A stretch of DNA of 64,000 bases from Acidobacteriota bacterium. Lineage in GTDB: Bacteria > Acidobacteriota > Aminicenantia > UBA2199. The notes below the pieces were generated by a model. The model was not told where the DNA came from. It did no database searches and was given only the letters and a program-made list of their open reading frames with translations. Positions 42,232 to 63,477 of this stretch are shown here, piece by piece. Numbering within the stretch: the stretch's first letter is position 1; each line of letters begins with the position of its first letter. The stretch is taken from the NCBI GenBank assembly GCA_030837085.1, contig JAUPLE010000150.1, forward strand, positions 3,016 to 67,015. Direction: 5' to 3'. The position numbers and the translations under genes were made by a program.

Positions 42232-45200
42232 TTAATAGTCGAATTCGGCCTCCAATTCAGTTGTGCGCTCCGAAGCAGACTGTACTACATCTACACAGCT
42301 ATAATCGTCACCCCGCATTTTTTTGATAAGCTCCTCTCGATCGGTTTCACTCAGGATGCATATCTCTGAAATTTTTTGCCTTGGATTAACCAGAACAGAA
42401 GAGACAATGGCCTTGAAATATTTGATCAACCGTGATATTGTTTCCGCCCTATATAGTTTGGTGCAGTACTGGAAGGTAAAATATAATTTTTCTCCTCTCT
42501 CGTTGGCAGTGAGAGTCAATTCGAATTTTGTTGTGTTATTCTCAAAGCCGATGATCGGAGCTTTCACTGCGACCTGGGATTGTGAGACTGGCAAAGGTGG
42601 TTCCTGTGGCACAATCTTACTCATATTTTCCATGGCAAAGACCACATCAAATAAGAGGTGGTGGCCGATATCCCTTCCCTGTGCTACTTTCTCTATCAGG
42701 TCTTCAAAACGGTAGTCCTGGTTTTCAAAGGCTTCCAGCGATCGTAACTTCACTTCATCAAGAAAATCGACGAAACGTTTCTCTCCTGAAGGAAAATTTC
42801 GCAGTGCTAACATGTTGACAAACATTCCAATGATCTTTTCCAGATCGGCATGCCCTCGGCCAGCCGTGGCAGTGCCCACAAGGATGTCTTCCTGGTGGGA
42901 AACGTGAAATAACAATATATAATATATGGACAGTAATACCATGAACAAGGTACTTTCTTCTTGCCGTGCCATTTCATTCAACGCCATTGTTATTTCAGCA
43001 TCAAGCTCGAACGCAATAACCCTTCCTTCGAAGCTCTGTAAAAAGGTCCTGGGATAATCAAGGGGCATTTTCAACCGGGGAATTTCTCCAGCTAACTGCT
43101 TTAGCCAGTACTCTTGCTGTCGTTTGAAAGCGTTGGTTTCGGACTGCTGATGTTGCCATTGGGAATAATCTTTATATTGGAGTTTTAAAGGAGGTAATTG
43201 GTTTCCCACATACAATGCGTTGTAATCCTGTTCTAATACCTGTTGAGAAACGCCATCCGATATGATGTGATGCATGTCTACCATCAGGATGTACCCTCCA
43301 TTCTTGGATTTTGTGATTCCCACTCTCAAAAGCGGCACCTGGGATAAATCAAAAGCCCGGACAAAACGTTGGATCCTTTTTCCAGCTTCCCGGGGAGAGT
43401 CCGATGAGTCGTAACCATCATCATATTGTTCTAATTCAATAGCGATGTCGTCGAATATCCGCTGAGCAGGTTCCCCATCGATCAATTCAAAAGAAGTTCT
43501 TAAGCTTTCATGCCTTTGTATTAATTTCTTGAAGGTATTCTTCAATCTATCCTTATCCACCTCACCTTCAAATACCAGGATTTTAGTCAGGTTGTAAGAG
43601 ATACTATCCGGGTTCATTTGCTGGAAGAAGAACAGTCTCTCCTGTGCAGGAGAGAGTGGATAGTATTCTTTCTTCTCCACAGAATCAATCGATAGGTATT
43701 TAGCTTTTTTATCTTTATCATTCCTAGCATCCTTCATTGTTATGTACCCGCTCAATCCCATTAATGTGGGTGTTTTAAATAACTGGACGAGGGGGATTTT
43801 CACGTCAAAGGTCTTGTGAATTTTCGAAATTAAGATGGTGGCTTTTAAGGAATGTCCGCCCAGATCGAAAAAATTGGCATTCAAACTAATGGTATTTTCA
43901 GCTATTCCCAGTACATCCGACCATATCTGTACTAGTTTTCTTTCTACCTCAGTCGTGGGGGGTATATACTCGGCTTTTACTTGTAAAGTCATCTTCCGCA
44001 ATCCTCGGGTGTCTATTTTACCACTGGCAGTGAGAGGCATTTTATCTACCTGGACAATGTAGGTGGGGATCATATAATTGGGCAATTTCGCACCCAGGCA
44101 GTCTCTAATTTCTGATGCCACTTGCAGTCTACTCGATACCACATAAGCACAGAAGTTTTTATCTCCCCTTTCATCTTCTTTTACCAAAACTACAGCCTCT
44201 TTTATATCTTCCATTTCCCGGAGGTGTTTTTCAATCTCCCCCAATTCAATGCGGAATCCCCTTATTTTTACTTGCTGGTCCACACGACCCAGGAATTCAA
44301 TATTCCCATCCGGCAGCCATCGGGCTTGATCTCCGCTTCGGTACATGATCGCTCTTTCTACAAATGGATTAGGTATAAATTTTTCAGCAGTCAACTGAGG
44401 CTGGTTCAAATATCCCCGAGCCACACCTTCTCCTGAAATGCAAAGCTCTCCCTGACCACCGATGGGCACCGGATTGAAATCATTGTCTAGTATATACAAC
44501 CTGTAATTCATCAAAGGTTTTCCAATGGGTATCCGTTGATTCAATGTAATTCCGTCGCATAGATAAAGGGCCGCGTTGATGGTAGTTTCTGTAGGACCGT
44601 ATATATTGAGAATACTCTCTGTTCTAAAAGTCTCTTTTAGCGCGACATAGAGCTCAGGGCTGAAGGTATCACCCCCCACAAACAAGTATTTTATCCAAAT
44701 CTTATCCTTTTCTATATTCTCTAGAAGCACCTTCATGAAGGCGGGAACGATATTCAATATGTTGATTTTGTTATCATGGATAAAGGGCCATAGTTTTAAG
44801 GGATCTTTCTTGACCTCTTCGCTAACCAGGAAAATTTTCGCACCAGTGGTTAGTGCAGAAAACAGATGCATCACCGAAACATCAAAGGTAATGGCTGCCA
44901 GCAGTAGATAATTGAAAGAGGCGTCCAGTTGGAACTTTTTCTTCAGACCTGTCAATTGATTGACTATATTACGGTGTTGGATCAGGGCGCCTTTGGGAAT
45001 ACCTGTGGAGCCGGAGGTGTAAATGATATAAGCAAGGTCATTGGAATTATTAATAGGTTCCGGGTTCTGATTGGATTCCCCATACAGGATGTCCGCAATG
45101 CGATCCGACAAAACCACTTCTCGGCACCTCTGCCGAAGTCTCGACTTTTCATCTTTTTCCAAAAAGGCGATTCCCTGGATATTCTTCAATACCTCGTCAT

Positions 45201-47965: not shown

Positions 47966-50900
47966 TTAAAAATTAAAATTTACCTCCGGCATATTAACCT
48001 GAGCCGTCTCCAGCCGGTGAGAAACTTTGATGTCTTTTAGTTTAATATTTTTATTTTCAGTCACAATACGAGAAATTTCTTCATAATGTTTGGCAAATCT
48101 CTCAATAGTTTCCCTTTTAAATAACTTTGTACAATATCTTAATGTAAAATGAACAACCTCAGAAATTTCATTAGCATGAATAATAATATCAAATTGTGTG
48201 GTCTTCACCTCTATAGGATAGAGACTAAAAACCAAATTACCAAGTCCCGGTCCCTCTTTGGGTACATTTGAATTCTCGACATAAATATTATGGAGGGTAA
48301 AATGAGTATCAAATAATACCTGCCGTCCGGCATCCCGCTGGATACCGAGCAGGTTAACCAGTTCATCGAATTGATAATCTTGGTTTTCATAGGCTTTTAA
48401 TGCATTGGTTTTTACTTCTTTTAGAAAATCAAGAAAGGTAATTTCTCCGTAGGGGTGATTACGCATAGCCAATGTATTCACAAAAAATCCGATAACATGC
48501 TCCAGGTCTACATGGGGACGCCCCGCGCTGGAACTTCCCACCACTATATCTTCCTGCCCGGTGTATTTATACAAAAGGATATTATAAATAGCTAATAATG
48601 CCATGTAAAGGGTGGCCCCCACTTTTGAGGCAATTTCATAAATGTCCGCTATTAGATTTTTATCTAGGACAAATATGATGGTATCTCCTTCAAAGCTCTG
48701 GACCTTCTGCCTAGGGTAATCGGTAGATAAATTGAGCGTCGGGATATCACCGGAAAAGACATTTAGCCAGTATTCTTCTTGCTTTTTGAGAACACCGGAT
48801 TCTCTTAGATTATTTTGCCAGATGGAAAAATCTTTATACTGGATTCTTATAGAGGGAAGTTCCATTCCGGCAAACAATGATATAAATTCTCTGATATATA
48901 GCTGGAATGATGTCCCGTCACTAATGATATGATGCATATCGTATATTAACAGATGGTTCTCTTCTGCCAATTTTAACAGCCCCACCCTCTGCAAGGGAGC
49001 TTTACCCAGATCAAAAGGCTGCACAAAAGCATTGATGATGTCTTTGATTTGCTGGTTTGAAATGGCGTGGATTTCGCTGTTTGCGTCTATCTGGGTAATT
49101 TTTAAACCGACACTTTCATGCACTCTCTGTACCGGATGATGATCCACCATTTCAAAGGAAGTCCGAAGCAACTCATGCCGTTCTATCATTCGATTAATTG
49201 TGCTCTCTAAGCATTCATAGTCTAGGGGACCATCAACTTGATACACCCCCGGGATATTATCACTGGTTGTAGTCTTGATCTGACTTAACAAAAACATGCG
49301 CATCTGTGCGGAGGATAATGGATAATATTCCTTTTTTTCTACCGGCTGAATCGAGGTATATATCTCTTCCTCCGATCCCATCAAGTACCGGGATAATTCT
49401 CTTATAGTTGGAGTTTTAAACACTTCTCCCACAGGTAATTTCATATTTAATTCTTTATTTACCCTTGCAGCCATTATCGTGGCGTTTAACGAGTGCCCAC
49501 CTAGTTCGAAGAAATTGGAATCGATGCCGAAGGTATTTTTTTCCTTCCCCAGCAATGCAGACCATATCTTCATGAGTGTTTCTTCAACATCATTCCGGGG
49601 AGCTACCAATTCCTTCCTTGTTTCTAATCCAGGTTCCGGCAGTGCTTTTATATCAACCTTACCATTTGGAGTTAATGGCAACCGCTCCAGCGAAATAAAA
49701 TACATTGGGATCATATAATCCGGTAATTCTTCCCGCAGGTATTCCCTCAGTTCTTTGGATAAAGAGCCTGTATCCGGCATCCTATTATTTACTTCAAATG
49801 TATATTCAACTCCATTAAACAGCGCTTCGTAAAATTGTTTCATGGAAATATCTTTCCTTTCGAGGTTCCCGCTTGATCCGGGAGAATAGATCATATACGC
49901 AGGCCGATCCGGCCGGATTTCAGTGGGAATTTCGATCATATTGGGAGTATCGTCTTCCTTTTCCATTTCTTCGATATGGGTTATATTAATAATGGCTATA
50001 TTCATATTAACTCTATTTCTCAATTTTTCCGCTGTGTCCACCCAATCATCATTGGTTACTATAATTCGACTTTCGGAATCTTCAAGGATATTAGTCAATT
50101 CTTCCAGGGAAGAAGAAGTATCTAAATGAACATATACCTTACCGGATTTCATCGCTCCAACGGCTCCAATTGCCAGGTGAGTATCCTGGTTGACTAGTAG
50201 TGCAATGGTTTCCAGTTTTTCTTCTTCTCTTTTTTCTTCCTGGATATAAGTGACCGAATGGGCTTTTTCCCTTTGTTCTTCAAGGGCTTTTCGCATTTCC
50301 ATACCTCTTGAACCACACACCGGGCAATCGGGATCCGGTTCTATTTTAAGCTCTTCCAGGAAATTCCCTCTCCAACCGATTTCCCAATCAAATCCCTGCT
50401 CTTTACATAGCCTTATGAAATGATCACTGAAAAGATGAGTCATTGCTTTATATCCTGGAGTAAAAGCCAGGTCAGTGGCGGCACCTCTTTGATTAAAATA
50501 AAAAAATTTGTTATAAGCCGGTTCTTCAAATCCCAATAAAATTTTCAATGCTTCATTTACTACTACTCCAGTACTGATGAAAAGGGATGTTGATACGACA
50601 GGAAGGGGGTTTTTACTATAATTCGCGACATAATGTTTCATCGCATTAACTATAGTTTCCAGCTTTGCCTTATCGAATAGGCAGTGATAACATGGAGTAT
50701 GGGGTGAATGTAATACCGCCGCATAAGCATTAATATCCGTCATAGATATGATCAAATGAGGAATTTGTTTAACAATTGCACATTCAGATAAGATGAACTT
50801 ATCTGCCGGGCCATCGAACATATCGAAAATAATGGCCGAATCTCCTACTAGTTCAAATACGTTTTCACGGGTTAGTTTCTGGGTGCATGGTACTACCTTA

Positions 50901-53900
50901 ACATGGGGATTGGTTTTGCCGACCGTAATTTGGGCAGAGATTGCTTTGTTCATTCCCAGGCGTTCGTCGTTATGTAAGAACTGACGGTTTAAGTTACTTA
51001 ATTCAACTGTATCAAAATCGCAGATTTTAATAGTCCCAAAACCAGCTAATGCCAGTTGAGTAACTGTGGGAGAAGCACCGCCGCCGGCACCGGCAACAAA
51101 TACGGTGGTGCTCTTCAATTTTTCCTGGGAAGCCTGGCCCCAACCGGCCAAAAGCATCTGGCGAATGTACCTGATTCGTTCTTGCTTCGATAATTTGTAT
51201 CGGTCATCATACTTCTCAAGGATGAGACAGGCCAACCGATTGGCATATTGATCCAAGGTTTCAAAGGTTAACGAGCGCTTGTTGGATTTTACAGCGATTT
51301 TCTTGCGGTTCATTCCCGCTTGCTCAATATAATGTTTTTTAATTCCTAACTCCCGGAAAGTAATTACTTTTTTCTGATTTTCCATTTTCTCTTTCCGGTC
51401 GACCCGAGGAGGAGATATCCCCTCATTTGCTTTTGAAACGATGTAGGCACATATGTATTTCTCTCCCTGCTCGTCGCCAGGTTTGACACCGAGCATTGCG
51501 GCAGCCTTTACAATCACCAGCGCATCATCCACAATAGGATGTTTACGCAACCGATTCTCTATCTCTCCCAATTCGATCCGGTATCCCCTAATCTTTACTT
51601 GTTTATCGATTCTTCCAAGGAATGCTATAGTACCATTGGACAGCCAGCAGGCAAGATCGCCAGTACGGTAGGCAGGATAATGAAGTGACGAAGTGATGGT
51701 GGAATGCAGTGATGGAAAGACAAACTTATCTATGGTTAATTCCGGTTGGTTCAAATAGCCCCTAGCCAGACAGGTTCCAGATATGCACAATTCACCCGGA
51801 ACACTTATGGGTAATAAATTCAAATCCTTCCCCAATACATATATATTGGCATTATAGATGGGTTTTCCTATTACCGGTTGTTGTTGATATTTTTCAAAAT
51901 TTTCAAAATCGACAAAGGTGGAAATGCAACCGATGGTAGCTTCCGTGGGACCGTAATGATTCATGATATGAAGATGGGGACAAAGTGCATGGGCTTTTTC
52001 AAGGTCTTTCACGTTAATGGGTTCACCACCTATCACAGCCAATCGCAACGTCCGGCATTTCAGCAGGGAAAAACCGGGCGCATTAATAATTGCTGAGAAA
52101 AGAGAAGGAGTTACCTTTAAATAAGTAATTTCCTTCTGCAGAATGTAGTCCAATAACCCGTCGGGCAATAAATACATTTCCCTGGATAATATGTGTAATT
52201 GGCCGCCGTTTAAAATCGAGGGGAATAATGTAGTATAACCTAGGTCAAAGGCAAAAGAAGATGTCAATATGGCCTTATCACATGGAGTTAAACTTGTGGT
52301 TTTGGTGAACCAATGAACATAATTGACTACGCTCCGATGGGAAAGGATAGTGCCTTTTGGTTTACCGGTGGTGCCGGAGGTGTAGATGACGTAAGCATCA
52401 TTGTCTGCTAAGGCAGTTAATCCGAAGGTTGAGATTGAGAGAGATGATAGATTTGAGATATCGATTATTCCAAAAGATACCTTCTCTATCCCAGCTTTAA
52501 GCTTAGCTATGGTTTCTGGTGTTGCCACCAAAGTTTTTGCATTGCTATCCTTTAACATATATTCAATTCGACCACTGGGGAATTCCGGATCTATTGGCAT
52601 AAAAGCACAGCCAGCTTTCATTATTCCCAAAATTCCTACAGGTATATCTACAGAACGCTCCAACATGATGCCCACAACTTGATTCGGAGTTACCCCCTTT
52701 AACTTTAACTCCATTGACAGTTGATTTGCTTTTTCATGCAACTGTCGATAAGTCAGCACTTGGTTAACAATTAATCCTCTTCTGATGTCTTTTTTGTATT
52801 GATCTACCTTTTTATTCATTTCCAGATAAAAGCTGGTGATCATGGAATTCATTCGATCATCTTTAAAATAAATGTATGGATAATTAAGTTCTTCAGTTGT
52901 TAAATAATTAGAGTTATTGTTAAAGCTTTTTTGACTGTAGGTTAAAAACTCCTCAAAATTAGAGGCATAAGCATACATCTGGTATTTTCCAGCATCCTCT
53001 AAGATTGGTGCCCCCGGTTGAGCATGCAAACGCGCCCAATGTAGTTCACCAAAACATGAATGGTTATTTATAATTTTAGACAGCAATTGTTTACTAGGCT
53101 CAATATCTTCCTGAGTAAAACAAGGGAGACCAGTGATTAAATTCAACCTTACTTCAATATTAGGATATTCATCACATCGGTCCATAAACTGCATAATATC
53201 TTCATCAGTAGGCTGGGGCTTGACCAATCCCATGGAGAATAACAACTTCCTGTGCGTCTCGGAGGGAGTACAAATATCGAAATCCCAGTATACATATTTA
53301 AAGGTTTGGCTGACCAACTTGATCAATTGCGCGGATGGGGGTGTTAATGTAGAAAAAATACAAAAGTGCCCGGAGAGATCAATTCCCTCCCATATCTGTC
53401 GACAATATTCAACTAGACGCTTATCCAGGATATCAAATTCGAACATAAAAGTAGATGTATATGGTTTGGCCTCCATTATATCTTTCCTGACTTCTTCTAC
53501 TCCACGTTTAAATACTTTTTTTCGGTTGAATGCCTTTTGATGTACTCGATTACAACCGCCACAGTATAGGCAGTTCATTTCACACCCTTTATGGGTAACG
53601 ATAAAAAATGTGCCCAAACGTGAAGTATAATGGGAAAGTAATATTTCATCCAGGTGTGATAGATAAACTTCCCGACTGACGGTCTCATCCTGAACATAAC
53701 CGATTGGATTCACAATAATCCGCCCGTCATTTTTATATACGCAATTGGGGATACTACCAATATCCTCTCCCCGGCATATTCTCAACAGTGGGTCCTCACC
53801 ATCCCCTCGAACCAGGATATCAAAACAGTCATACATCATTATTTTTTCCGGGTAATAGGAAGCAGTATTGCCCCCCACAACAATTTTTATTTCTAATGAA

Positions 53901-55630
53901 TTATTTCGGGCATATTCTTTTATGATTGTCCCCATTTCGATTACCCGTGCGATGTAGAGAAACCACTTCATACTAATGGCAACAATTTCCGGCTGAACCT
54001 GCTGCAAAAGTGTCTCAATATTTTTTTTCATGGAAGCATAGTCCGTACTATTATCATAGAACTGGCAGCGTGTTTTGATCCCCTTCCGCATTAAATAAGA
54101 ACCCAGGTATAATAAACCAGTAGAAGGAGTCCCCGATGTATCTCCCAGAAGTAACACTTGGGCTTTAGTTATTTCTTCATCTTTAAATTTCCGCCAAAAC
54201 CAGTCTATACTTAATTCTGTGACCACTTCCTTTTCAAAACTACCGCTGTGCGACTTCGACGATCGGGCTTCCATTCCATCGTCATTAACTCCCACCAGAT
54301 CGATCAAATGGTTCCGGTAAAGAGTTTGAACCAATGGAACCAAATCTTCAAATTCATCCACAGTATAAATCTCCGGCCGGTTATTGAATTGAAAGAAAAC
54401 TTCCAAGAGGTCGGTCTTGTTCATAGTATATATGAGAAATGCAGCTTCATTATCTTCCATGGTTTTAATTTGTTTATAAATGGTTTTTAAATTTCTCCTG
54501 CCGTCAAAAAGTACAATTAACTCAGCCATATTCTTATTGACAATCACACTGTTGTGCCAATTTGTTTTTAACAATTTCCAACCACTTTTAGAGAAAGGCT
54601 GCTCCAGATCAGCATGATAAATAAAAAGATTCTTATTAAAACAACAGGTTTCCATTTGTTTATTCACCCCGACGTCTGTGCCTATGGATTCCAACAAGTT
54701 ATATATATCACTCAGATCAATAGGAGAAAACACAGCGGTTTTATCCGGAGTTTTTTCCACCTGCTCTTCAAACCATTGATGGATGGTCTTTCCAGAAGGG
54801 TATCCTGTCTCAGTATTATTAAAATCCAGTAGAATCTGCTTTTTCTCTTGCGGAGTTAGCATGCCCAGGTGAGAAAGCGGTAAATCTACATTAAAAATGG
54901 CCTCCCGAAGCAGTTGGTTAAAATGGCCGACCAGCTTTTCTAGGGTGGTTTTCTTATACAATGCCGTGTTATATTCCAAAATTCCTATGATATAGGGAAT
55001 ACTCCCATCTGCTTCTTCTATCCGGAAAATAAATGTCAGACTGCACGGAGTATGTCGGAGATATTTTTTATTATGGATATTTTCAAGTAGAACCGCCACA
55101 TCAAAAAGTGGCGATCCCTCTTCAAATGTATCTGCATCAAACTTTAGTTTTTCTGTTAACAGTTCGATCGGATAATTTTGATTATCAATAGCATCGGTGA
55201 GGGTTTGTCTTACCTGCAATATGAATTCTCTAAAAGAGACATTCTTTCCCACCCTATTTCTCAACACCAATATCGTATTTATAAAATCACCGTCCATTTC
55301 TTGTTCATAAATAGGTGTTCCGACAATAATGTCTCGATTGCCGATATACTTGTGCAGTAAAAGGATGACGCCAGCAATAAACAGCAAGTTCAAGGTGAAA
55401 TTTGAACCTTTACTCAACACCATTAATTTAGCTGCAATTTCCTCATCAAATTTAAAAATGGTGGAATCAAACTCAGCGGCTTCATCAATATAGGTACTTG
55501 TTTTTTTGTAGTCATAGGGGAAATGGGCTTTTACCAATTCTCCAGCCAATTGCTTTAGCCAAAAATCCTTTTCCTTTAAATTTTGTTCTGCGGCTATTCT
55601 CAACAATTTTGGATAATTCTTATGGATCAT
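47966..55630 (-). CDS. NRPS module Clobe - unknown 200-aa region - [B12 then rSAM] - A[ThiF/E1-like domain plus degenerate A fragment at a8-a9] - T - C (2554 aa), tail ...EVNFNF
   Basis: Clobe (DFWLKQLAGE, FINTILVLRN, NQNYPIE, SPLFDV). A core A1 LTYRQLHEKANQLS, A3 AYVIYTSGTTGKPKG, A5 NHYGPTEAT, A7 YRTGDLACW, A8 GRIDKQVKIRGYRIELGEIE, A9/A10 LPDYMIP..PNGKVD. T FFELGGHSLNA. C MHHIISDGTSF. Confidence 0.85.
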   Translation of the reverse strand: MIHKNYPKLLRIAAEQNLKEKDFWLKQLAGELVKAHFPYDYKKTSTYIDEAAEFDSTIFKFDEEIAAKLMVLSKGSNFTLNLLFIAGVILLLHKYIGNRDIIVGTPIYEQEMDGDFINTILVLRNRVGKNVSFREFILQVRQTLTDAIDNQNYPIELLTEKLKFDADTFEEGSPLFDVAVLLENIHNKKYLRHTPCSLTFIFRIEEADGSIPYIIGILEYNTALYKKTTLEKLVGHFNQLLREAIFNVDLPLSHLGMLTPQEKKQILLDFNNTETGYPSGKTIHQWFEEQVEKTPDKTAVFSPIDLSDIYNLLESIGTDVGVNKQMETCCFNKNLFIYHADLEQPFSKSGWKLLKTNWHNSVIVNKNMAELIVLFDGRRNLKTIYKQIKTMEDNEAAFLIYTMNKTDLLEVFFQFNNRPEIYTVDEFEDLVPLVQTLYRNHLIDLVGVNDDGMEARSSKSHSGSFEKEVVTELSIDWFWRKFKDEEITKAQVLLLGDTSGTPSTGLLYLGSYLMRKGIKTRCQFYDNSTDYASMKKNIETLLQQVQPEIVAISMKWFLYIARVIEMGTIIKEYARNNSLEIKIVVGGNTASYYPEKIMMYDCFDILVRGDGEDPLLRICRGEDIGSIPNCVYKNDGRIIVNPIGYVQDETVSREVYLSHLDEILLSHYTSRLGTFFIVTHKGCEMNCLYCGGCNRVHQKAFNRKKVFKRGVEEVRKDIMEAKPYTSTFMFEFDILDKRLVEYCRQIWEGIDLSGHFCIFSTLTPPSAQLIKLVSQTFKYVYWDFDICTPSETHRKLLFSMGLVKPQPTDEDIMQFMDRCDEYPNIEVRLNLITGLPCFTQEDIEPSKQLLSKIINNHSCFGELHWARLHAQPGAPILEDAGKYQMYAYASNFEEFLTYSQKSFNNNSNYLTTEELNYPYIYFKDDRMNSMITSFYLEMNKKVDQYKKDIRRGLIVNQVLTYRQLHEKANQLSMELKLKGVTPNQVVGIMLERSVDIPVGILGIMKAGCAFMPIDPEFPSGRIEYMLKDSNAKTLVATPETIAKLKAGIEKVSFGIIDISNLSSLSISTFGLTALADNDAYVIYTSGTTGKPKGTILSHRSVVNYVHWFTKTTSLTPCDKAILTSSFAFDLGYTTLFPSILNGGQLHILSREMYLLPDGLLDYILQKEITYLKVTPSLFSAIINAPGFSLLKCRTLRLAVIGGEPINVKDLEKAHALCPHLHIMNHYGPTEATIGCISTFVDFENFEKYQQQPVIGKPIYNANIYVLGKDLNLLPISVPGELCISGTCLARGYLNQPELTIDKFVFPSLHSTITSSLHYPAYRTGDLACWLSNGTIAFLGRIDKQVKIRGYRIELGEIENRLRKHPIVDDALVIVKAAAMLGVKPGDEQGEKYICAYIVSKANEGISPPRVDRKEKMENQKKVITFRELGIKKHYIEQAGMNRKKIAVKSNKRSLTFETLDQYANRLACLILEKYDDRYKLSKQERIRYIRQMLLAGWGQASQEKLKSTTVFVAGAGGGASPTVTQLALAGFGTIKICDFDTVELSNLNRQFLHNDERLGMNKAISAQITVGKTNPHVKVVPCTQKLTRENVFELVGDSAIIFDMFDGPADKFILSECAIVKQIPHLIISMTDINAYAAVLHSPHTPCYHCLFDKAKLETIVNAMKHYVANYSKNPLPVVSTSLFISTGVVVNEALKILLGFEEPAYNKFFYFNQRGAATDLAFTPGYKAMTHLFSDHFIRLCKEQGFDWEIGWRGNFLEELKIEPDPDCPVCGSRGMEMRKALEEQREKAHSVTYIQEEKREEEKLETIALLVNQDTHLAIGAVGAMKSGKVYVHLDTSSSLEELTNILEDSESRIIVTNDDWVDTAEKLRNRVNMNIAIINITHIEEMEKEDDTPNMIEIPTEIRPDRPAYMIYSPGSSGNLERKDISMKQFYEALFNGVEYTFEVNNRMPDTGSLSKELREYLREELPDYMIPMYFISLERLPLTPNGKVDIKALPEPGLETRKELVAPRNDVEETLMKIWSALLGKEKNTFGIDSNFFELGGHSLNATIMAARVNKELNMKLPVGEVFKTPTIRELSRYLMGSEEEIYTSIQPVEKKEYYPLSSAQMRMFLLSQIKTTTSDNIPGVYQVDGPLDYECLESTINRMIERHELLRTSFEMVDHHPVQRVHESVGLKITQIDANSEIHAISNQQIKDIINAFVQPFDLGKAPLQRVGLLKLAEENHLLIYDMHHIISDGTSFQLYIREFISLFAGMELPSIRIQYKDFSIWQNNLRESGVLKKQEEYWLNVFSGDIPTLNLSTDYPRQKVQSFEGDTIIFVLDKNLIADIYEIASKVGATLYMALLAIYNILLYKYTGQEDIVVGSSSAGRPHVDLEHVIGFFVNTLAMRNHPYGEITFLDFLKEVKTNALKAYENQDYQFDELVNLLGIQRDAGRQVLFDTHFTLHNIYVENSNVPKEGPGLGNLVFSLYPIEVKTTQFDIIIHANEISEVVHFTLRYCTKLFKRETIERFAKHYEEISRIVTENKNIKLKDIKVSHRLETAQVNMPEVNFNF
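49853..50179 (-). other. Degenerate duplicate of an A-domain a2-a3 segment, following the ThiF-like domain
   Basis: LAIGAVGAMKSGKVYVHLD resembles A2 LAILKAGGAYVPLD. PAYMIYSPGSSGNLERKD resembles A3 LAYxIYTSGSTGxPKG but has lost the P-loop Thr/Gly and Lys residues. Confidence 0.5.
50306..51118 (-). other. ThiF/MoeB (E1-like adenylyltransferase) domain embedded between A8 and A9 of the A domain
   Basis: VFVAGAGGGASPTVTQLALAGFGTIKICDFDTVELSNLNRQ is the E1 nucleotide-binding signature. Downstream zinc-knuckle CYHC...CPVCGS. DNA checked at 51061-51120. Confidence 0.8.
52931..54163 (-). other. B12-binding domain followed by a radical-SAM core (canonical class-B order), located before core motif A1 of the A domain
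   Basis: B12 motifs AQVLLLGDTSGTPSTGLLYLGSYL, IKIVVGGNTASYYPEKI, DILVRGDGEDPLLRI. rSAM motif THKGCEMNCLYCGGC (CxxxCxxC), followed by about 200 aa of rSAM-like barrel sequence. Confidence 0.75.
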
Positions 55631-55644
55631 AAAACACTCCTTTC

Positions 55645-58600
55645 TTAAAATTCCAATTCCATTTTCGGCTGATCAACTGTGGCACTTAAAAAATGGTGCG
55701 AAATGGTGATATCTTTTATTTTGATATCTTTATTATCTATTACGCTGGCTATAATTTGTTTGAAGTAAGCTATGAACTTCTCTATGGTTTCTTGTTTAAA
55801 CAATTTCGAACAGTATTCGACTGTGAATCTCACCTTTCCCTGAATATCCTCGCAAAAAAAGGCCATATCAAACTTTGAGGCCTGGTTATCATACTTATAC
55901 GGTCTAAATTTCAATCCAGATGGCCCGGTTCCAGAAATATCATCTACCGCTCTTGTCTCATTCTTTTGGTTCTGTAGAATAAGGGCGACATCGAACAATG
56001 GATTTCTGCCCATTTTTCTGGATACTAATATTTTTTCTACCAGCTCTTCAAATTGGTAATCCTGGTTTTCAAATGCCAACAAAGCTTTTTCTCTGACTTC
56101 CGCTAAAAATACTTTGAATGTCTTTTCTTTGCAGGGATAATTCCTTATTGCCAGTGTATTTACAAACATACCGATGAGAGGTTCAATATCCGGGAATCTC
56201 CTCCCTGCAATCCCCGTACCAATAATGATATCTTCCTGGCCACTGAGTTTGGCCAGTAATACACTATAAAACGCAATCAATACCATAAACAGGGTGACAT
56301 CTTCTTCCCGGGCTAATTCTTTAATATCTGTGGTTTCCTTTTCGGTTATTTCAGACTTTACCCAACCACCCTCAAAACTCTGATAAGGCGGTCTTTCATA
56401 ATCGAATGGCATATTCAATTCTGGAATACCTCCGCTAAACTCTTTTAACCAATAATCCTCCTGGTGCTTTAGCGCCAACTTGACTTCAGGATTGCTCTGC
56501 CATTCCGAATAATCTTTGAATTGAAGTTTTAAGGATGTCAATTCTTTGCCAACCATGAGAATCATGAACTCCCTTACAAATATTCCCATTGAAATACCGT
56601 CCGATATTATATGATGTGTATCTACAATTAAAAAATGTTCTGTCTCAGCTATTTTTATCACTCCCACTCTTAATAAAGGCGCTTTTGATAAATCAAAAGC
56701 TCTAACAAAAGTTTTTATCATTTTATCGATTTTTTCGTTTACTAAGATCGAGGCCCCGGGTGATATATCGTTTTTTGAAAGGTCATAATAGTCTATCTCA
56801 AAATCCACAGATTTGTGTACCTTCTGCACGGGTGTATCATTTACCATTACAAATGATGTTCTCAAACTCTCATGTCTTTCGATCAGCTTCCTAAAAATTT
56901 TCCCCAGTCTATCTTTATCGCACTCCCCCTCCAGTATCACCATATTGGGCATGTTATAACCGAAGCTGTCTGGTTGAATTTCCTGCATGAGGTAAATTCT
57001 TTTTTGCGCAGAAGATAAGGAATAATATTCTTTTTCCTCAGTAAGCTCTATCTCCATAAGTACAAGCGGTATTTCATTATCTAATTTCCCTGAAATATAA
57101 TTAGCTAAACCTTTTATTGTAGGTGTGTTAAAAAACTCAGGAATTGGTACCCGGGTTCCTATCTCTTTCTGAATTCTTGCAACAACAGCTATAATTTTCA
57201 GAGAGTCCCCCCCCAATTCGAAAAAATCATCATCAATACCCACAGGTTTAATACCAAAAAACCTCTGCCAGATATTAACCAATTCTTGCTGAGTTTTATT
57301 TTCTGGGGGAGTATAGGAAGTAGAAATTTTAGGTCTCTCATAAAACGTATCGAAATGATCATCATCAAGTGAATCAACAATGCCCGATTCTAATTTTATG
57401 TTATAATTATCTACATATTTAACTACTTCTCCTAAATCGCGTGATGAAATAATTACATGAGCCAAATCATTCTCAAGTATACGGTCAAAAACCTGGATAC
57501 CTTGCGAAGGTGATATGGCCAAAATATTATCACTAAGGTCGGTGGAGAGATTTGCTGCTTTCGCAGCTTTGATTGCCATGCCCACTTCACTCCAATCACA
57601 CCAATCGATAGTTACTGTATAGGTACCTTGTTTCTGTTTATAATAAGCAAATACTCCCAGGAATTCATGGCCTGCGTTATATCCAACCTGACCGAATTTT
57701 ATTTTATATAGGAGATTGCCGATGGATGAAAAAAGGACCATAAAATCCAATTTATTATTTGCCAGGAGTTCATTTATTACTAGAGTACCTCTCACTTTTG
57801 CAGCCAAGAGTTCTTCTGTCATCTCGCGTGTCCGACGATGAATAACACCTGCATAATCGATAAGTCCTGCTGCATGGATAACTCCGTTTATTTTCCCGAA
57901 ACGTTCCTCTGATTTCCCGATAGCTTCTTTCATTCGTTCATAATTTGATACATCGACATGATGAATATATATCTCCGCTCCGAGGTTTTCCATTTCTCTT
58001 ATTTTTCGTATCTGCTGGCAAAAGGTTTCCCCCTCTTTGTCATCGCGCGTCAAACAATCATCCCATTGATCGCGTGGTGGGAAATCCAAAATATCGATTA
58101 ATATTAACCTGCTCTTATGTCTTCGCGCCATATGTTCAGCGATAGTAAATCCCATGCCTCCTAATCCACCGGTAATCAAGTAAACACCATTTTCCTTGAA
58201 ACGACAACTATTTTGGGAGTTGCCATTCAGTCGGATGGGTTCGTAGCTTTCTTTCCAGCGATAACTGCCGCGATAAGCCACCACTAAATGCTCAGAAAAG
58301 TTCGTAGAAAACTCCCGGAGAATTTGAGTTACGAGTAAATCCATTTTATCAACATCCAGACCAGGATCAATAATATCGATACTCCGACAGCAAACATTAC
58401 TATATTCTAGGGGAATTACCTTGACAGGTCCAAGAATGGTCGCTTTTTCAGGGCATAATGCTTCCTCTCCTGTTGCGGACTGCATACTACTGGTAATAAC
58501 TCCTAGTTGAATTTCATGATAAATACTATTTTTTCCGATGGCCTGGGCGATATTAAGCAGGCTATAAAGTCCTAAATCTTGCACTTGATCGATTATTCCT

Positions 58601-60759
58601 AATTTCAGCCTATTTTCATTGCCAGAAGCTATAGACCAACAATGGATAATATTATCAGGTACATTCCCGGATTTCAAAAGCTCTTTGAATAACATGTCGT
58701 AACTATTAGTGTCCTGTGGATTAACTGTATACTCATTGAAATTAATCCCTCGATAGGCTGCCCCGGGTCTAACAATCACCATATTAGTATTTTCTTCTTT
58801 CAACCGTTCTGCCAGATGCTCCCCCACCGGAACACCATTCAAAAACAAAAGCCAAATAGATTGCGTTCGCGATCTTTCTATACTATTAGGAAGGGGTGAA
58901 TATGTCCATGTCGGTATATAAAACCAACCTGTCATATCATGAATTTTTTCCAGACGCTTTTTTGGAAAAAGAGATTCTTCTTTAATAAATGGATCCATAT
59001 CAATCCAATAACGTTGCTTTTCAAAGGGATATTTAGGAAGTGGGACACAGTAGCCATTGTTGTTTTTTGAATAAAATTCCTTCCAGTCAATTTTTCGTCC
59101 ATTTAACCATAACCGACCGATACGAATTAATGATTCCCTATCCACCGTGTTTTCTATTTTAATGGGAGAAGTGACTTCATCTTCAGCTAAAAGCACGTGA
59201 GTTTCACCTGCTTCCGGTGACTTTAAGGCATGTATGATTTCTTCCACCATCGAACATACCGCCATCCACCTGTATTTGAATTCCTTCCGGCCTAAATGCA
59301 ATGTATAAACAACATCTGCAAGGTTTATGCTGGGATTCTTTTCGAGATAATTTGCTAAATTTTGAGTCATTTTTTGCAAAGCGATTTCACTTTTAGCAGA
59401 TAATAATATTAACTGGTATGGTCGTAATAGAGACGACTCTTCATCGACTCCCGCCCTTTTGGGGGGTTCCTCAAGAATAATATGGGCGTTGGTGCCGCCC
59501 TGGCCAAAGGAACTGATCCCTGCTCGCAATGGATATCGCCCATTTTCCCACGCCGTCGGTTTTGAATTGACATAAAAGGGGCTGCTTATAAAATCGATGC
59601 CGGGATTGGGTATTTCAAAATACAAACTGGAAGGAATATAGCTATGTTTTAATACCAATACGGTTTTAATAAATCCTACCACCCCGGCAGCAGAATCCAG
59701 GTGTCCCACATTGGTTTTTACGGAGCCAAGGGCGCAAAAACCTTTTTTATTAGTATTGAAGGCCAATTTTAGCCCTTCGATTTCAACCGGGTCTCCCAGG
59801 GCTGTTCCGGTTCCGTGGGCTTCAATGTAACCAATGCTCTCAGCTTCCACTTCCGCCATTTGAAAAGCCGTTTTAATGACTTCGGCCTGGCCATCAACAC
59901 TGGGGGCGGTGAAACCGGCCTTCCTGACGCCGTCATTGTTTATTGCAGACCCCTTTACCACTGCATAAATATGATCCCTATCAGCAATGGCATCCTGGAG
60001 GCGTTTCAAAACCACAACACCGGCGCCATCCCCAGCGGCAAATCCATTGCCCCCAGCATCAAAAGCCCGACAGTGGCCATCCGGCGATCCGATCATCCCC
60101 TCCTGGTATGTATAACCCCTTTTACGAAAGCGGATAACGGTAACACCGCCGGCTAATGCTATATCGCATTCGCCGTTCAATATGGACTGGCAGCCCAGGT
60201 GTATAGCCACTAATGATGTGGAACAGGCGGTGTATAATACAAAACTCGGCCCCTTTAAATCCAGCTTATAGGAGATACGCAGCGTTAAATAATCCTTCTG
60301 GCTCAACTGATTGGCTGCAAAACTTCCAATTTCACTATCTTTGCCGGATAATAAGACACGTGCTTGCCAGTTGAAATTGGGGGTGGCACCGGCATAAAGA
60401 CCGATTAAACCATCATATATCCCGGGAATACAGCCGGCATCTTCTAATGCCGCCCATACGCATTCATGAAAAATCCGCACCTGGGGATCCATAATTTCGG
60501 CTTCTCTCGGTGTATATCCAAAAAAAGGGGCGTCAAAGCACTCGATTCCTTCGATTATGCCGCTGGCTTTTACATAATGAGGATGCTCCAGTAACGCCGG
60601 ATCAAGACCATCGTCAAGCAATTCTTCATCGCTGAAAAACGAGATGGACTCCCTACCGTTTTTTATATTATCCCAGAATTCATGAATATCCACTGCACCG
60701 GGAAATTTCCCTGCCATTCCGATCACAGCGATCTCCAATCCTGTTCGTTCTTTCTCCAT
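55645..60759 (-). CDS. PKS-NRPS protein KS - (AT excised) - KR - ACP - C (1704 aa), tail ...PKMELEF
   Basis: KS motifs YTACSTSLVAIHLGC, EAHGTGTALGD, NVGHLDSAAG. The KS-AT linker (ILLSAKSEIALQ...) joins the post-AT linker (IRIGRLWLNGRKIDWKEFY) with no GQGAQ/GHSxG between. KR YLITGGLGGMG, FSSIGNLLYKIKFGQVGYNAG. ACP FFELGGDSLK. C THHIISDGISM. Confidence 0.85.
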   Translation of the reverse strand: MEKERTGLEIAVIGMAGKFPGAVDIHEFWDNIKNGRESISFFSDEELLDDGLDPALLEHPHYVKASGIIEGIECFDAPFFGYTPREAEIMDPQVRIFHECVWAALEDAGCIPGIYDGLIGLYAGATPNFNWQARVLLSGKDSEIGSFAANQLSQKDYLTLRISYKLDLKGPSFVLYTACSTSLVAIHLGCQSILNGECDIALAGGVTVIRFRKRGYTYQEGMIGSPDGHCRAFDAGGNGFAAGDGAGVVVLKRLQDAIADRDHIYAVVKGSAINNDGVRKAGFTAPSVDGQAEVIKTAFQMAEVEAESIGYIEAHGTGTALGDPVEIEGLKLAFNTNKKGFCALGSVKTNVGHLDSAAGVVGFIKTVLVLKHSYIPSSLYFEIPNPGIDFISSPFYVNSKPTAWENGRYPLRAGISSFGQGGTNAHIILEEPPKRAGVDEESSLLRPYQLILLSAKSEIALQKMTQNLANYLEKNPSINLADVVYTLHLGRKEFKYRWMAVCSMVEEIIHALKSPEAGETHVLLAEDEVTSPIKIENTVDRESLIRIGRLWLNGRKIDWKEFYSKNNNGYCVPLPKYPFEKQRYWIDMDPFIKEESLFPKKRLEKIHDMTGWFYIPTWTYSPLPNSIERSRTQSIWLLFLNGVPVGEHLAERLKEENTNMVIVRPGAAYRGINFNEYTVNPQDTNSYDMLFKELLKSGNVPDNIIHCWSIASGNENRLKLGIIDQVQDLGLYSLLNIAQAIGKNSIYHEIQLGVITSSMQSATGEEALCPEKATILGPVKVIPLEYSNVCCRSIDIIDPGLDVDKMDLLVTQILREFSTNFSEHLVVAYRGSYRWKESYEPIRLNGNSQNSCRFKENGVYLITGGLGGMGFTIAEHMARRHKSRLILIDILDFPPRDQWDDCLTRDDKEGETFCQQIRKIREMENLGAEIYIHHVDVSNYERMKEAIGKSEERFGKINGVIHAAGLIDYAGVIHRRTREMTEELLAAKVRGTLVINELLANNKLDFMVLFSSIGNLLYKIKFGQVGYNAGHEFLGVFAYYKQKQGTYTVTIDWCDWSEVGMAIKAAKAANLSTDLSDNILAISPSQGIQVFDRILENDLAHVIISSRDLGEVVKYVDNYNIKLESGIVDSLDDDHFDTFYERPKISTSYTPPENKTQQELVNIWQRFFGIKPVGIDDDFFELGGDSLKIIAVVARIQKEIGTRVPIPEFFNTPTIKGLANYISGKLDNEIPLVLMEIELTEEKEYYSLSSAQKRIYLMQEIQPDSFGYNMPNMVILEGECDKDRLGKIFRKLIERHESLRTSFVMVNDTPVQKVHKSVDFEIDYYDLSKNDISPGASILVNEKIDKMIKTFVRAFDLSKAPLLRVGVIKIAETEHFLIVDTHHIISDGISMGIFVREFMILMVGKELTSLKLQFKDYSEWQSNPEVKLALKHQEDYWLKEFSGGIPELNMPFDYERPPYQSFEGGWVKSEITEKETTDIKELAREEDVTLFMVLIAFYSVLLAKLSGQEDIIIGTGIAGRRFPDIEPLIGMFVNTLAIRNYPCKEKTFKVFLAEVREKALLAFENQDYQFEELVEKILVSRKMGRNPLFDVALILQNQKNETRAVDDISGTGPSGLKFRPYKYDNQASKFDMAFFCEDIQGKVRFTVEYCSKLFKQETIEKFIAYFKQIIASVIDNKDIKIKDITISHHFLSATVDQPKMELEF

Positions 60760-60762
60760 TTT

Positions 60763-63477
60763 TTATCCTTTCCCAGCTTCCAGTCGCTTCTGAAGTCGCT
60801 GCCGCCGGTCCATTTTGCCTCTTTCAAGGGCTGCCGATCGATCGCGATGGTCTGCCATTGATACCTCTTTTTTAGCGTTGGGATTTAAATACTCCGCTAA
60901 CGAATGCACGGTGGTATACCGGAACATGCTGACTATCGGTATTTCCAACTGGAATACTTCTCTTAACTTGCCATTTATCCTGATAATATCGAAAGAGGTT
61001 CCACCCACCTCGAAATAGTTGTCGTGGATGCCGACTTTATCCCGGTTTAAAACTTCCTGCCATATCCCGGCGATCTTTTTCTCTATTTCATTTTGTGGGG
61101 CCACATAAGTGGCGCTGGGATCTATTCGTTTGGCCAATAACTCCAGGGCCTTGCGGTCCACTTTCCCATTGAGAGTCAGGGGTATTTTTTCTACTTGCAT
61201 AAAATGCGCCGGAATCATATAGTCGGGCAGTACACCGGCCAGGTATTCCCTCAATTGGGGAATATTAAATTCTTTTTCCGTCGCAATATATGCAAATAGG
61301 GACGGAACAGCGCCAGCGCTTTCCTTAAATAATACTACGGCCCCTTTTATGTCTTCATGCTTCAATAGTTGAGTTTCGATTTCTCCCAATTCGATGCGGA
61401 AACCCCTTATCTTTACCTGGTGATCGATGCGGCCTAAAAATTCGATGTTACCGTCGGGCAACCACCGGGCCAGGTCGCCGGTACGATAAAACTTTGAATG
61501 ATGAGTGATGAATGATGAATGATGAAGATCGATAAATTTTTCCGCGGTTAATTCCGGGCGGTTCAAATATCCCCTGGCTAACCCTACTCCTGAGATGCAC
61601 AGCTCCCCTTTTACTCCAATGGGTTGGAAACGCTGGTTTTGATCTACTATGTGTAAATTGATATTATCGATAGGTCTACCGATTGGTATCTCATTGATGT
61701 TTTCTCCAGCCAAACAATTAAAGAAAGAGACATCTACGGTGGCTTCCGTAGGGCCGTATAAATTTACCAAATTGACGCCGAATTTGGCGGTCAACAATTG
61801 TCGGAACATTGCAACCTGACGCCCCCCTAATGCTTCCCCACTGGAAAATACCTGTCTTAAATTGGAAAGCCCGGTCAGGTTGACGGAATATTCACAATAT
61901 TCCAGAAAAACCTGCAACATGGAGGGGACAAAGTGTATTGTACTGATCTTGTTTCTTGCGATGGTTTTTATTATCGCTTCCGGGCTTTTTTCTTCATCGA
62001 CGCCCAGAAGGCAAAGCGAAGCGCCCTGGAAGGACCACCAGAATAATTCCCATACAGACACATCGAAAACTGCAGGTGTTTTTTGCAAGATCACATCCCC
62101 TGGGTTGATTGGGTAATATTTTTGCATCCAATGGAGCCGATTCACCACTGAGTGATGTTCGATCATTACACCTTTTGGATTCCCTGTGGATCCAGATGTG
62201 TAAATGACATAGGCGATATTTGAAGAATTGGAAGCGTGGCAGCATGGAAGCGTGGAAGGGTGGAAATTAGAAGGTTCTAAAGAATCTATAAAAATAATTT
62301 CAACATCCTTCTTCTCTTTTGCTATTCCACTCTTCCAATCTTCCGCCCTTCTTATCATTATCTTTGCTGCACTGTCCTTCAACATGTAATTGATGCGTGC
62401 TTCCGGGTATTGCGGGTTGATGGGCAAATATGCGCCCCCGGATTTTAAGATACCGAAAATTCCGATAATCATCTCCAGGGACCGTACCACCATAATACCC
62501 ACTATGATATTGGGTTTCACTCCTTTTTCTCTTAATAGGCCGGCCAATTTACCGGAGCTTTCGTTCAATTCCCGATAAGAAAGATACGTCTTCTCTTCTT
62601 CTCTTCTTCTCTTCTTCGCATCTCCTTCTGCTCCTACAACCGCGATATGGTCCGGCGATCTCTCAGCCTGCGCCTCGAACAATTGATGTATGGTTTTATC
62701 CCTTGGATATTCCGCTGCCGTATCGTTAAATTCATATAATAATTGCTGTTTTTCTTCAACGGTCAAGACATCCAACAGATACACCTTCTGTCCCGGGTTC
62801 TCTACCATGCCATCCAGCAAGTGGAGCACATTCCTGCTGAATCGTTCAGCCGTTTCCCCGGCATGGGGGGATGAAGGATATTTTACTGTTATAACCATTT
62901 GTGTATTAGACTCAGATAGGACAAACACCAGGTCGAAACGGTCAAGATACCGGTTTTCCACTTGCAGCGAATCATAAGTTAGAGCAATCTTGAAGATGTT
63001 TATAGATCTGTTATTATTTATTTCCTGTAATTCCGCTAAAATACAATCTAAAGAGAATTCCGAATAATTAACCGCCTCGATCACTTCCTGTTTAGTTTGA
63101 TCAATCAACTCTTTAACGGTCAAAGGAGAGGAAATCCGGTTCCTGCAAAATAGTATATTCCTATCCTTCCCGTCATTTCCGCCTGCTACAGGGGGCATTA
63201 TACCCACGATCAAATCTTCAATACCTGTATATTTGTTCAGAACGATATTCAAGGCGCTGAGAAACAAAATAAACAAACCGATATCGGAATTTTTAGCTAT
63301 TTTTTTCAATTTAACTATTAACTCCTCCGGGATGTTTAATTGAAAGGAAAGGGCCTGAGATTTCGCTGTGGTTTCTTTTATTATATCATGTATTGATGGC
63401 AACGATATTACCGGCAATTCTCCCGACAGTTTTTTCAGCCAGTATTCGTCGATAACTGTCTTTTTTATCTGCTCCAT
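60763..63477 (-). CDS. NRPS module Clobe - A - T (904 aa) with a basic C-terminal tail, feeding the downstream KS
   Basis: Clobe (DEYWLKKLSGE, NYSEFSLD). A motifs LSYRELNESSGKLA, AYVIYTSGSTGNPKG, FDVSVWELF, NLYGPTEAT, YRTGDLARW, GRIDHQVKIRGFRIELGEIE, LPDYMIP, LNGKVDRKAL. T YFEVGGTSF. Tail ...RRQRLQKRLEAGKG. Confidence 0.85.
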   Translation of the reverse strand: MEQIKKTVIDEYWLKKLSGELPVISLPSIHDIIKETTAKSQALSFQLNIPEELIVKLKKIAKNSDIGLFILFLSALNIVLNKYTGIEDLIVGIMPPVAGGNDGKDRNILFCRNRISSPLTVKELIDQTKQEVIEAVNYSEFSLDCILAELQEINNNRSINIFKIALTYDSLQVENRYLDRFDLVFVLSESNTQMVITVKYPSSPHAGETAERFSRNVLHLLDGMVENPGQKVYLLDVLTVEEKQQLLYEFNDTAAEYPRDKTIHQLFEAQAERSPDHIAVVGAEGDAKKRRREEEKTYLSYRELNESSGKLAGLLREKGVKPNIIVGIMVVRSLEMIIGIFGILKSGGAYLPINPQYPEARINYMLKDSAAKIMIRRAEDWKSGIAKEKKDVEIIFIDSLEPSNFHPSTLPCCHASNSSNIAYVIYTSGSTGNPKGVMIEHHSVVNRLHWMQKYYPINPGDVILQKTPAVFDVSVWELFWWSFQGASLCLLGVDEEKSPEAIIKTIARNKISTIHFVPSMLQVFLEYCEYSVNLTGLSNLRQVFSSGEALGGRQVAMFRQLLTAKFGVNLVNLYGPTEATVDVSFFNCLAGENINEIPIGRPIDNINLHIVDQNQRFQPIGVKGELCISGVGLARGYLNRPELTAEKFIDLHHSSFITHHSKFYRTGDLARWLPDGNIEFLGRIDHQVKIRGFRIELGEIETQLLKHEDIKGAVVLFKESAGAVPSLFAYIATEKEFNIPQLREYLAGVLPDYMIPAHFMQVEKIPLTLNGKVDRKALELLAKRIDPSATYVAPQNEIEKKIAGIWQEVLNRDKVGIHDNYFEVGGTSFDIIRINGKLREVFQLEIPIVSMFRYTTVHSLAEYLNPNAKKEVSMADHRDRSAALERGKMDRRQRLQKRLEAGKG
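61496..61523. repeat. Tandem heptamer gaatgat gagtgat gaatgat gaatgat in an A domain; encodes HHSSFITHHS before YRTGDL
   Basis: Read directly. Confidence 0.8.
62591..62614. repeat. Perfect 3x tandem octamer (ttctcttc)3 in the A-domain N-terminal coding region; encodes KKRRREEEK
   Basis: Read directly. Nearby at 62221-62270 there are tggaagcgtgg-type imperfect repeats. Confidence 0.8.

Follow-up and report, generated by a model that had tools for sequence, protein, structure and literature searches.

Polyketide synthase (PKS) modules that lack an acyltransferase (AT) domain are known from several assembly lines, and these provide the closest described parallels to the gene considered here. 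The ketosynthase (KS) domains of trans-AT systems retain a structurally conserved KS-AT linker subdomain (reviewed in PMC11907408), and in the case of leinamycin the region C-terminal to the KS was first proposed to be an AT-docking domain (PMC6164871). In the biosynthesis of FK228 (romidepsin) by Chromobacterium violaceum the DepB and DepC proteins are AT-less, no AT gene is present in or near the cluster, and fabD1, which encodes the malonyl-CoA acyltransferase of the fatty acid synthase, is required (PMC12994790). Kirromycin synthase combines AT-containing, AT-less and nonribosomal peptide synthetase (NRPS) modules in one assembly line (PMC5818483), and its discrete AT, KirCII, is mentioned in PMC6164871. 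The subject of the present analysis is a gene at positions 55645..60759 of a 64-kb stretch of DNA, hereafter the window (positions 3,016 to 67,015 of contig JAUPLE010000150.1, assembly GCA_030837085.1), whose hybrid PKS/NRPS product, referred to below as the target, has no AT domain.

The target is listed at NCBI as 'hypothetical protein QG657_973' from a metagenome-assembled genome of an Acidobacteriota bacterium. Every large gene of the window is encoded on the minus strand, and together these genes make up a single NRPS/PKS cluster. What, then, is an AT-less module doing within this cluster, and how is its carrier domain charged? The evidence favours, with a probability of roughly three in four, a functional AT-less elongation module that would be loaded in trans. 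It is read as a working elongation module because both the Cys-His-His residues of the KS and the serine of the carrier domain are present.

Absence of the acyltransferase domain

A sequence-only reading of the window had earlier proposed that an AT is missing from this module, at a region corresponding to residues 505-550 of the protein (window 59110..59247, minus strand). The peptide strings quoted in support of that proposal are all present in the target, and the absence of the AT is confirmed by Pfam, by pairwise BLASTP and by an AT profile. A Pfam scan of the target returns no Acyl_transf_1 domain (PF00698), while the protein encoded at 27415..36429, which contains an intact PKS module, has this domain at residues 1219-1498. 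When the two proteins are aligned by BLASTP, target residues 5-529 match residues 691-1215 of the intact protein with 55% identity and residues 544-1222 match 1527-2209 with 38% identity. The gap is thus bounded by target residues 529 and 544, with about 311 residues of the intact module set against about 14 unaligned residues of the target. From linker to linker the distance in the target is only 29 residues, where the intact module carries an AT of about 310 residues, and the 505-550 region gives no AT-like signal by profile. The refuting condition named in the sequence-only reading, an AT-like fold in that region, is thus not borne out.

The profile was purpose-built from 75 related cis-AT domains. 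The target scores negatively against it with all filters off, and a six-frame translation of the window yields one AT only, inside the 27415..36429 protein; as a positive control, stand-alone ATs of about 425 residues were detected with the same profile in unrelated loci. The spacing between the YTLxxGR and LPxYPF motifs, which is 89 residues in the target, is 88-102 residues in 11 AT-less homologues and 379-436 in AT-containing relatives, with a third group at 201-317. A frameshift or an assembly collapse is unlikely to have produced this arrangement, because an identical protein of 1704 residues is found in a second assembly, the Logan contigs of run SRR24011133, on a 23.8-kb contig that starts inside the upstream gene. 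The possibility that resequencing might restore an AT, raised in the sequence-only reading, is accordingly a slim one.

Linkers shared with solved AT-less ketosynthases

When the structure of residues 1-620 was predicted from an alignment of 19 sequences, the mean pLDDT was only 41.7, which is too poor for a fold search, and sequence alignment to solved structures was used instead of a predicted fold. Residues 5-587 of the target align end to end with AT-less KS structures, with 7zma scoring 734 bits over two KSs. With 4wky, which we take to be an oxazolomycin KS although the database names it only 'Beta-ketoacyl synthase', the alignment scores 571 bits and pairs target residues 6-587 with residues 5-586 of a 595-residue chain. 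Further AT-less KS structures that align are PksJ (4na1), PksL (5e5n) and RhiE (4kc5), together with 4tkt, 4zdn and 4qyr, which carry the description 'AT-less polyketide synthase'. With the cis-AT KS-AT structures of CurL (4mz0) and DEBS (2hg4), the alignment to the target ends at about residue 520.

Since the solved AT-less KSs align through both linkers, the fusion of the KS-AT linker to the post-AT linker in the target represents textbook AT-less anatomy. The earlier statement that trans-AT docking features are not visible does not hold in the face of this alignment, for it is precisely these fused linkers that are canonical in AT-less KSs. Within the retained linker, Pfam places both a CurL-like (PF22621) and a RhiE-like (PF22336) linker family over residues 449-514.

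Proposed chemistry of the module

The three KS catalytic residues are invariant in the 19-sequence alignment, in agreement with the sequence-only reading of the KS as apparently active, and the loading of the carrier in trans, as that reading also held, follows logically from the lack of an AT. The gene upstream of the target encodes a protein that consists of the C-terminal half of a condensation (C) domain, an adenylation (A) domain and a peptidyl carrier protein (PCP) domain. The A-domain code, extracted by eye, is DVWHFSLVDK, which is presumably a code for serine or a serine-like amino acid. An upstream NRPS ending in A-PCP precedes the AT-less module in all of the related loci that have an annotated upstream gene, or, in L077, a fragment with just the end of an A domain and a PCP; the same order of A-PCP before KS is found in L079, L081, L162 and L164.

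On the proposed scheme the preceding A-PCP protein would activate an amino acid, probably serine, and transfer it to the KS at Cys179, and a free-standing or foreign acyltransferase would place a malonyl or similar group on Ser1186 of the carrier. Decarboxylative condensation by the KS would then be followed by reduction of the beta-keto group by the ketoreductase (KR), if the substitution described below is tolerated, giving a statine-like gamma-amino-beta-hydroxy acyl unit. The C domain would finally link this acyl unit, whether gamma-amino-beta-hydroxy or still beta-keto, to the amino acid that follows, on the next NRPS protein. The terminal domain was also considered as an epimerase, an assignment that was rejected on the grounds that its motifs are the C1-C7 of a condensation domain.

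In the KR alignment the target keeps the catalytic Lys, Ser and Tyr, while the Asn of the YxxxN motif is replaced by His (YNAGH), with a two-residue insertion just before it. Two homologues, P0065 and P0119, have Phe in place of the catalytic Tyr. Some members of the AT-less family may therefore have a weak or inactive KR; in the target the catalytic half of this domain is encoded at 57589..58188 (minus strand).

A family of AT-less modules and relatives with decayed ATs

The arrangement is not peculiar to the target. Eleven homologues have the same KS-linker-KR-carrier-C order with no AT, at 47-51% identity and 99-100% query coverage, and those whose source is named are all labelled Candidatus Aminicenantes; one of them, P0050, has an additional sulfotransferase. 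The boundaries of the junction coincide in nine of the 12 proteins, namely the target and eight homologues, and in each of these the short sequence in between is acidic and similar. There is also partial synteny between the clusters. L078, the locus of P0119, shares with the window the genes on the downstream side, unusual NRPS genes whose A domains are interrupted by B12-binding/ThiF or by radical-SAM domains. L164, the locus of P0033, shares instead the half-C-A-PCP and A-PCP-C genes found upstream of the target. The AT-less state is therefore taken to be old and inherited, because it is shared at about 50% divergence in clusters with matching neighbour genes. This is also where the sequence-only reading went astray in describing the AT as cleanly excised, in the sense of a local and recent event: the two modules of the window are only 55% (KS) and 38% (KR) identical, and the AT-less junction is found in homologues no closer than 47-51%.

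A further set of relatives (P0103, P0007, P0012, P0031, P0044, P0080 and P0108) retains AT fragments that score 20-92 bits and in which the GxSxG serine motif is unrecognisable; in P0103 the remnant at the position of the active-site motif reads GCGIGE. These decayed stumps look like intermediates on the way to loss of the AT. In a neighbour-joining tree of KS sequences the target is sister to P0103, and both fall with six AT-less homologues inside the cis-AT KS set, although this is a distance tree only and other AT-less members fall elsewhere. The nearest sequence relatives of the target KS are cis-AT modules, with 57-68% identity over the KS region. By this tree and by its nearest database relatives the target lies among cis-AT KSs, next to a module with a decayed AT, while the solved structures that score best against it are those of AT-less KSs.

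The KS tree would fit a course in which an intact AT first became inactive and was later deleted. The pattern is suggestive of an AT-less state that is ancestral to a small module family of Aminicenantes/Acidobacteriota and that would have arisen within a cis-AT-type KS lineage. More tentatively, and with the balance tilted against it, this state might have evolved independently of the classical trans-AT lineage by decay and then deletion of the AT, such that no free-standing AT encoded in the cluster would be needed and a fused AT or FabD would be borrowed.

Which enzyme loads the carrier?

In line with the sequence-only reading, Pfam and the six-frame AT profile find neither a discrete AT gene nor tandem acyl carrier proteins (ACPs) in the window. 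The AT profile likewise detects no discrete AT in the visible parts of eight related loci, to which views the statements on related clusters in this section and the next refer. In particular, none is seen in L078, L080, L081, L082 or L162, nor over 10 kb of upstream sequence in L002 and L164, in both of which the genes correspond to those that precede the target. The source contig is 81,060 bp in length and extends about 17 kb beyond the window, and the cluster continues upstream. The absence of a discrete AT from the window does not equate to its absence from the cluster, because an NRPS gene runs off the upstream end of the window. A protein search with the C-domain fragment from this upstream end gave only two distant matches. 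A 313-residue open reading frame at 17488..18429 (minus strand), between two NRPS genes, was considered as a hidden AT and rejected, as it matches neither Pfam nor the AT profile.

The only AT domain in the window is that of the 27415..36429 protein. It conserves the catalytic alignment columns for Ser, Arg and His. Its active site reads GYSFGE and not the GHSxG that had been attributed to it; Tyr takes the place of the usual His in 30 of the 75 relatives. At the specificity motif, HAFH in most relatives, it reads YAGH, which hints that this AT may select a non-standard extender unit.

The most likely loader would be an AT encoded outside the window, either the housekeeping FabD, for which FK228 is the precedent, or a distant discrete AT, an assignment that is much less certain than trans loading itself. 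In the ranking of candidates such an AT is followed by the cis-AT of the cluster acting in trans, with a non-elongating module a distant third.

Alternative explanations

If the carrier is loaded in trans, a rival candidate is the AT of the 27415..36429 protein, which would serve its own module and also the AT-less one; this competes with the preferred loader and not with trans loading as such. The domain is the only AT in 64 kb and its catalytic residues are intact. Among the nine family clusters viewed, four (the window together with L077, L078 and L079) have a cis-AT module beside or near the AT-less one, and a discrete AT is in view in none. The contig that encodes the AT-less P0086 also encodes P0125, which is orthologous to the intact protein, and at least four unrelated metagenome loci (L094, L107, L139 and L155) have mixed cis-AT and AT-less modules with no discrete AT within 10 kb. 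The junction alignment, when used to scan metagenomes, said little about co-occurrence, since among the matches listed most were AT-containing modules that matched only the post-AT linker, and a search with the intact 3004-residue protein brought up no partners on the L080 and L081 contigs. Against such sharing, no AT of any kind is found in partial views, of up to 26 kb, of L080, L081, L082, L162 and L164. The YAGH motif means that the window AT may pick a different extender, and, short of an exhaustive search, we know of no characterised natural fused cis-AT that routinely serves the carrier of another subunit. Sharing of the AT is for these reasons rather unlikely. It is far less probable still that the module does not elongate at all, being skipped, or having a KS that only passes the chain on, or being encoded by a gene that is turning into a pseudogene after loss of its AT. 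Such an outcome would account for the failure to see a loader and would sit comfortably with the altered KR residues of the target, P0065 and P0119 and with P0049, which is annotated as partial and is found in a small, possibly degenerate cluster beside toxin-antitoxin-like genes. Non-elongating trans-AT KSs (KS0) typically lack the catalytic His, whereas here the complete Cys-His-His triad is invariant, which also disfavours the KS/KR shuttle put forward in the sequence-only reading; moreover the reading frame is open over 1704 codons, the architecture persists through about 50% divergence in clusters with matching neighbours, and neither the serine of the carrier nor any of the C-domain motifs has been lost. 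Least probable by a wide measure is an artefact in which a collapsed or chimeric assembly dropped the AT-coding DNA. The genome was indeed assembled from a metagenome, and an assembler could in principle be misled by a contig with two PKS modules that resemble each other, but the second, independent assembly gives the same protein, the AT-less junction recurs in the eleven homologues from other samples, and the two modules are too divergent to recombine in silico.

There remain points that weigh against a functional, trans-loaded elongation module. No loader was found in the window or in the visible related loci, about 17 kb of the contig lying outside the window. Reduction by the target KR is uncertain, and the family may in part be decaying, as the KR substitutions would suggest; P0049, moreover, is annotated as partial. 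The target KS may also fall outside the classical trans-AT KS clade, given that its nearest relatives are cis-AT modules.

Feature coordinates and other genes of the cluster

Table 1. Coordinates within the window of the target gene, its domains and catalytic positions, and of the neighbouring features on which the proposed chemistry draws.
Feature	Position	Strand	Detail
Gene for AT-less hybrid PKS/NRPS protein, 1704 residues	55645..60759	minus	order KS, linker, KR, carrier, C
KS, residues 9-381	59617..60735	minus	Pfam PF00109 + PF02801
KS catalytic codons Cys179, His315, His353	60223-60225, 59815-59817, 59701-59703	minus	
KS C-terminal extension and retained KS-AT linker (flanking subdomain), residues 384-514	59218..59610	minus	PF16197, PF22621, PF22336
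Short acidic junction, residues 515-543, PEAGETHVLLAEDEVTSPIKIENTVDRES	59131..59217	minus	occupies the site of the ~300-residue AT of relatives
Post-AT linker, residues 544-587, LIRIGRLWLNG...LPKYPFEKQRYWID	58999..59130	minus	BLASTP match to intact-module residues from 1527; C-termini of AT-less KS crystal constructs
KR, structural subdomain 647-808 and catalytic subdomain 858-1057	57589..58821	minus	PF21394, PF08659
Single carrier domain, residues 1158-1222, PCP-like GGDSL	57094..57288	minus	PF00550, one stretch only
Phosphopantetheine-attachment Ser1186 of the target carrier	57202-57204	minus	
Full C domain, residues 1244-1686	55702..57030	minus	PF00668, 363 bits; motifs C1-C7 read in sequence
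Upstream gene, 904 residues, C-terminal half C, A, PCP	60763..63477	minus	likely aminoacyl donor to KS
Sole AT domain of the window, in the 27415..36429 protein	31936..32775	minus	PF00698, 162 bits; candidate in-trans loader
Active-site Ser1314 of the window AT	32488-32490	minus	

The 3004-residue protein encoded at 27415..36429 has the order FAAL-ACP-KS-AT-KR-ACP-sulfotransferase-C. Its sulfotransferase thus lies between a carrier and a C domain, and not before a thioesterase as in the formation of a terminal alkene of the curacin type. P0125 is its orthologue over the full length, with 51% identity, and within the window the gene is followed by one for a class-III aminotransferase (25995..27374, minus strand).

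The NRPS proteins of the cluster share one pattern of division. Those that start at 63477, 55630, 47943, 42162, 25961 and 17454 (minus strand) have only the C-terminal lobe of a C domain before the A domain, corresponding to about positions 185-456 of the 456-position Pfam model. In all of the cluster NRPS proteins the gene break falls between a complete C domain, at the end of the preceding protein, and a 'half-C'-A-T unit. In the products of 42232..47943, 36478..42162 and 47966..55630 (all minus strand) the A domains are interrupted by large inserts: two of the three carry Radical_SAM and B12-binding domains, and the third has a B12-binding domain near its start and ThiF inside the A domain. 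The same architectures recur in L078, L079 and L081. To our knowledge, no search having been aimed at the question, no characterised NRPS carries radical-SAM/B12 domains inside an A domain.

Related loci show some additional genes around the AT-less module. In L002 (3132..7317) and L164 (1359..4170) the A-PCP-C gene has two or three tandem open reading frames of about 460 residues on its upstream side; those of L002 are at most weakly similar to circularly permuted ATP-grasp enzymes, and the L164 copies have no Pfam match on record. Such tandem frames are probably also present just beyond the upstream end of the window. In the P0065 cluster (L162, 12215..15804; also L163) the AT-less module is followed by triose-phosphate-isomerase-like, PLP-dependent, short-chain dehydrogenase and inositol-phosphatase-like genes and then by an NRPS, and these small genes may supply a precursor.

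Implications and comparison with known systems

For genome mining, the practical consequence is that such a module is better labelled as AT-less and elongating than as broken, with the predicted product gaining a two-carbon-extended (statine-like) amino-acid unit. With its dead-AT-stump relatives and no cluster-encoded AT in view, the family could provide a natural case study of the transition from cis-AT to trans-loaded modules. It would likewise be of use in PKS engineering, where ATs are purposely deleted or inactivated.

How, then, does this locus stand in relation to the systems already described? In the AT-less modules of leinamycin, oxazolomycin and bacillaene, as in the target, the KS-AT linker and the post-AT linker (LPxYPFxxxRYW) are directly joined, without an intervening AT, and the carrier is loaded in trans, as it would be in the target. 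The target differs from these classical systems in being a lone AT-less module, set among mainly NRPS modules and accompanied by one cis-AT module, in having no discrete AT in view, and in that its nearest sequence relatives are cis-AT modules from the same phylum. DepB and DepC of FK228 are, like the target, AT-less PKS modules within a hybrid NRPS-PKS line; the cluster described here differs in having one cis-AT domain, 23 kb downstream, and both organism and product are unrelated. With kirromycin synthase the cluster shares the mixture of cis-AT and AT-less modules with NRPS modules, although kirromycin has the dedicated discrete ATs KirCI and KirCII and none has been seen here. A further parallel is provided by the cis-AT paralogue at 27415..36429 and the hybrid KS-AT-KR-ACP modules of Aminicenantes and cyanobacteria (CurL-like), which have the same KS, both linkers, an unusual KR insertion, a PCP-like carrier and a C domain; what the target lacks in comparison with its paralogue is a block of about 311 residues, the whole AT. 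The target is a further case of the known AT-less/trans-AT design, and it leaves the understanding of PKS enzymology unchanged.

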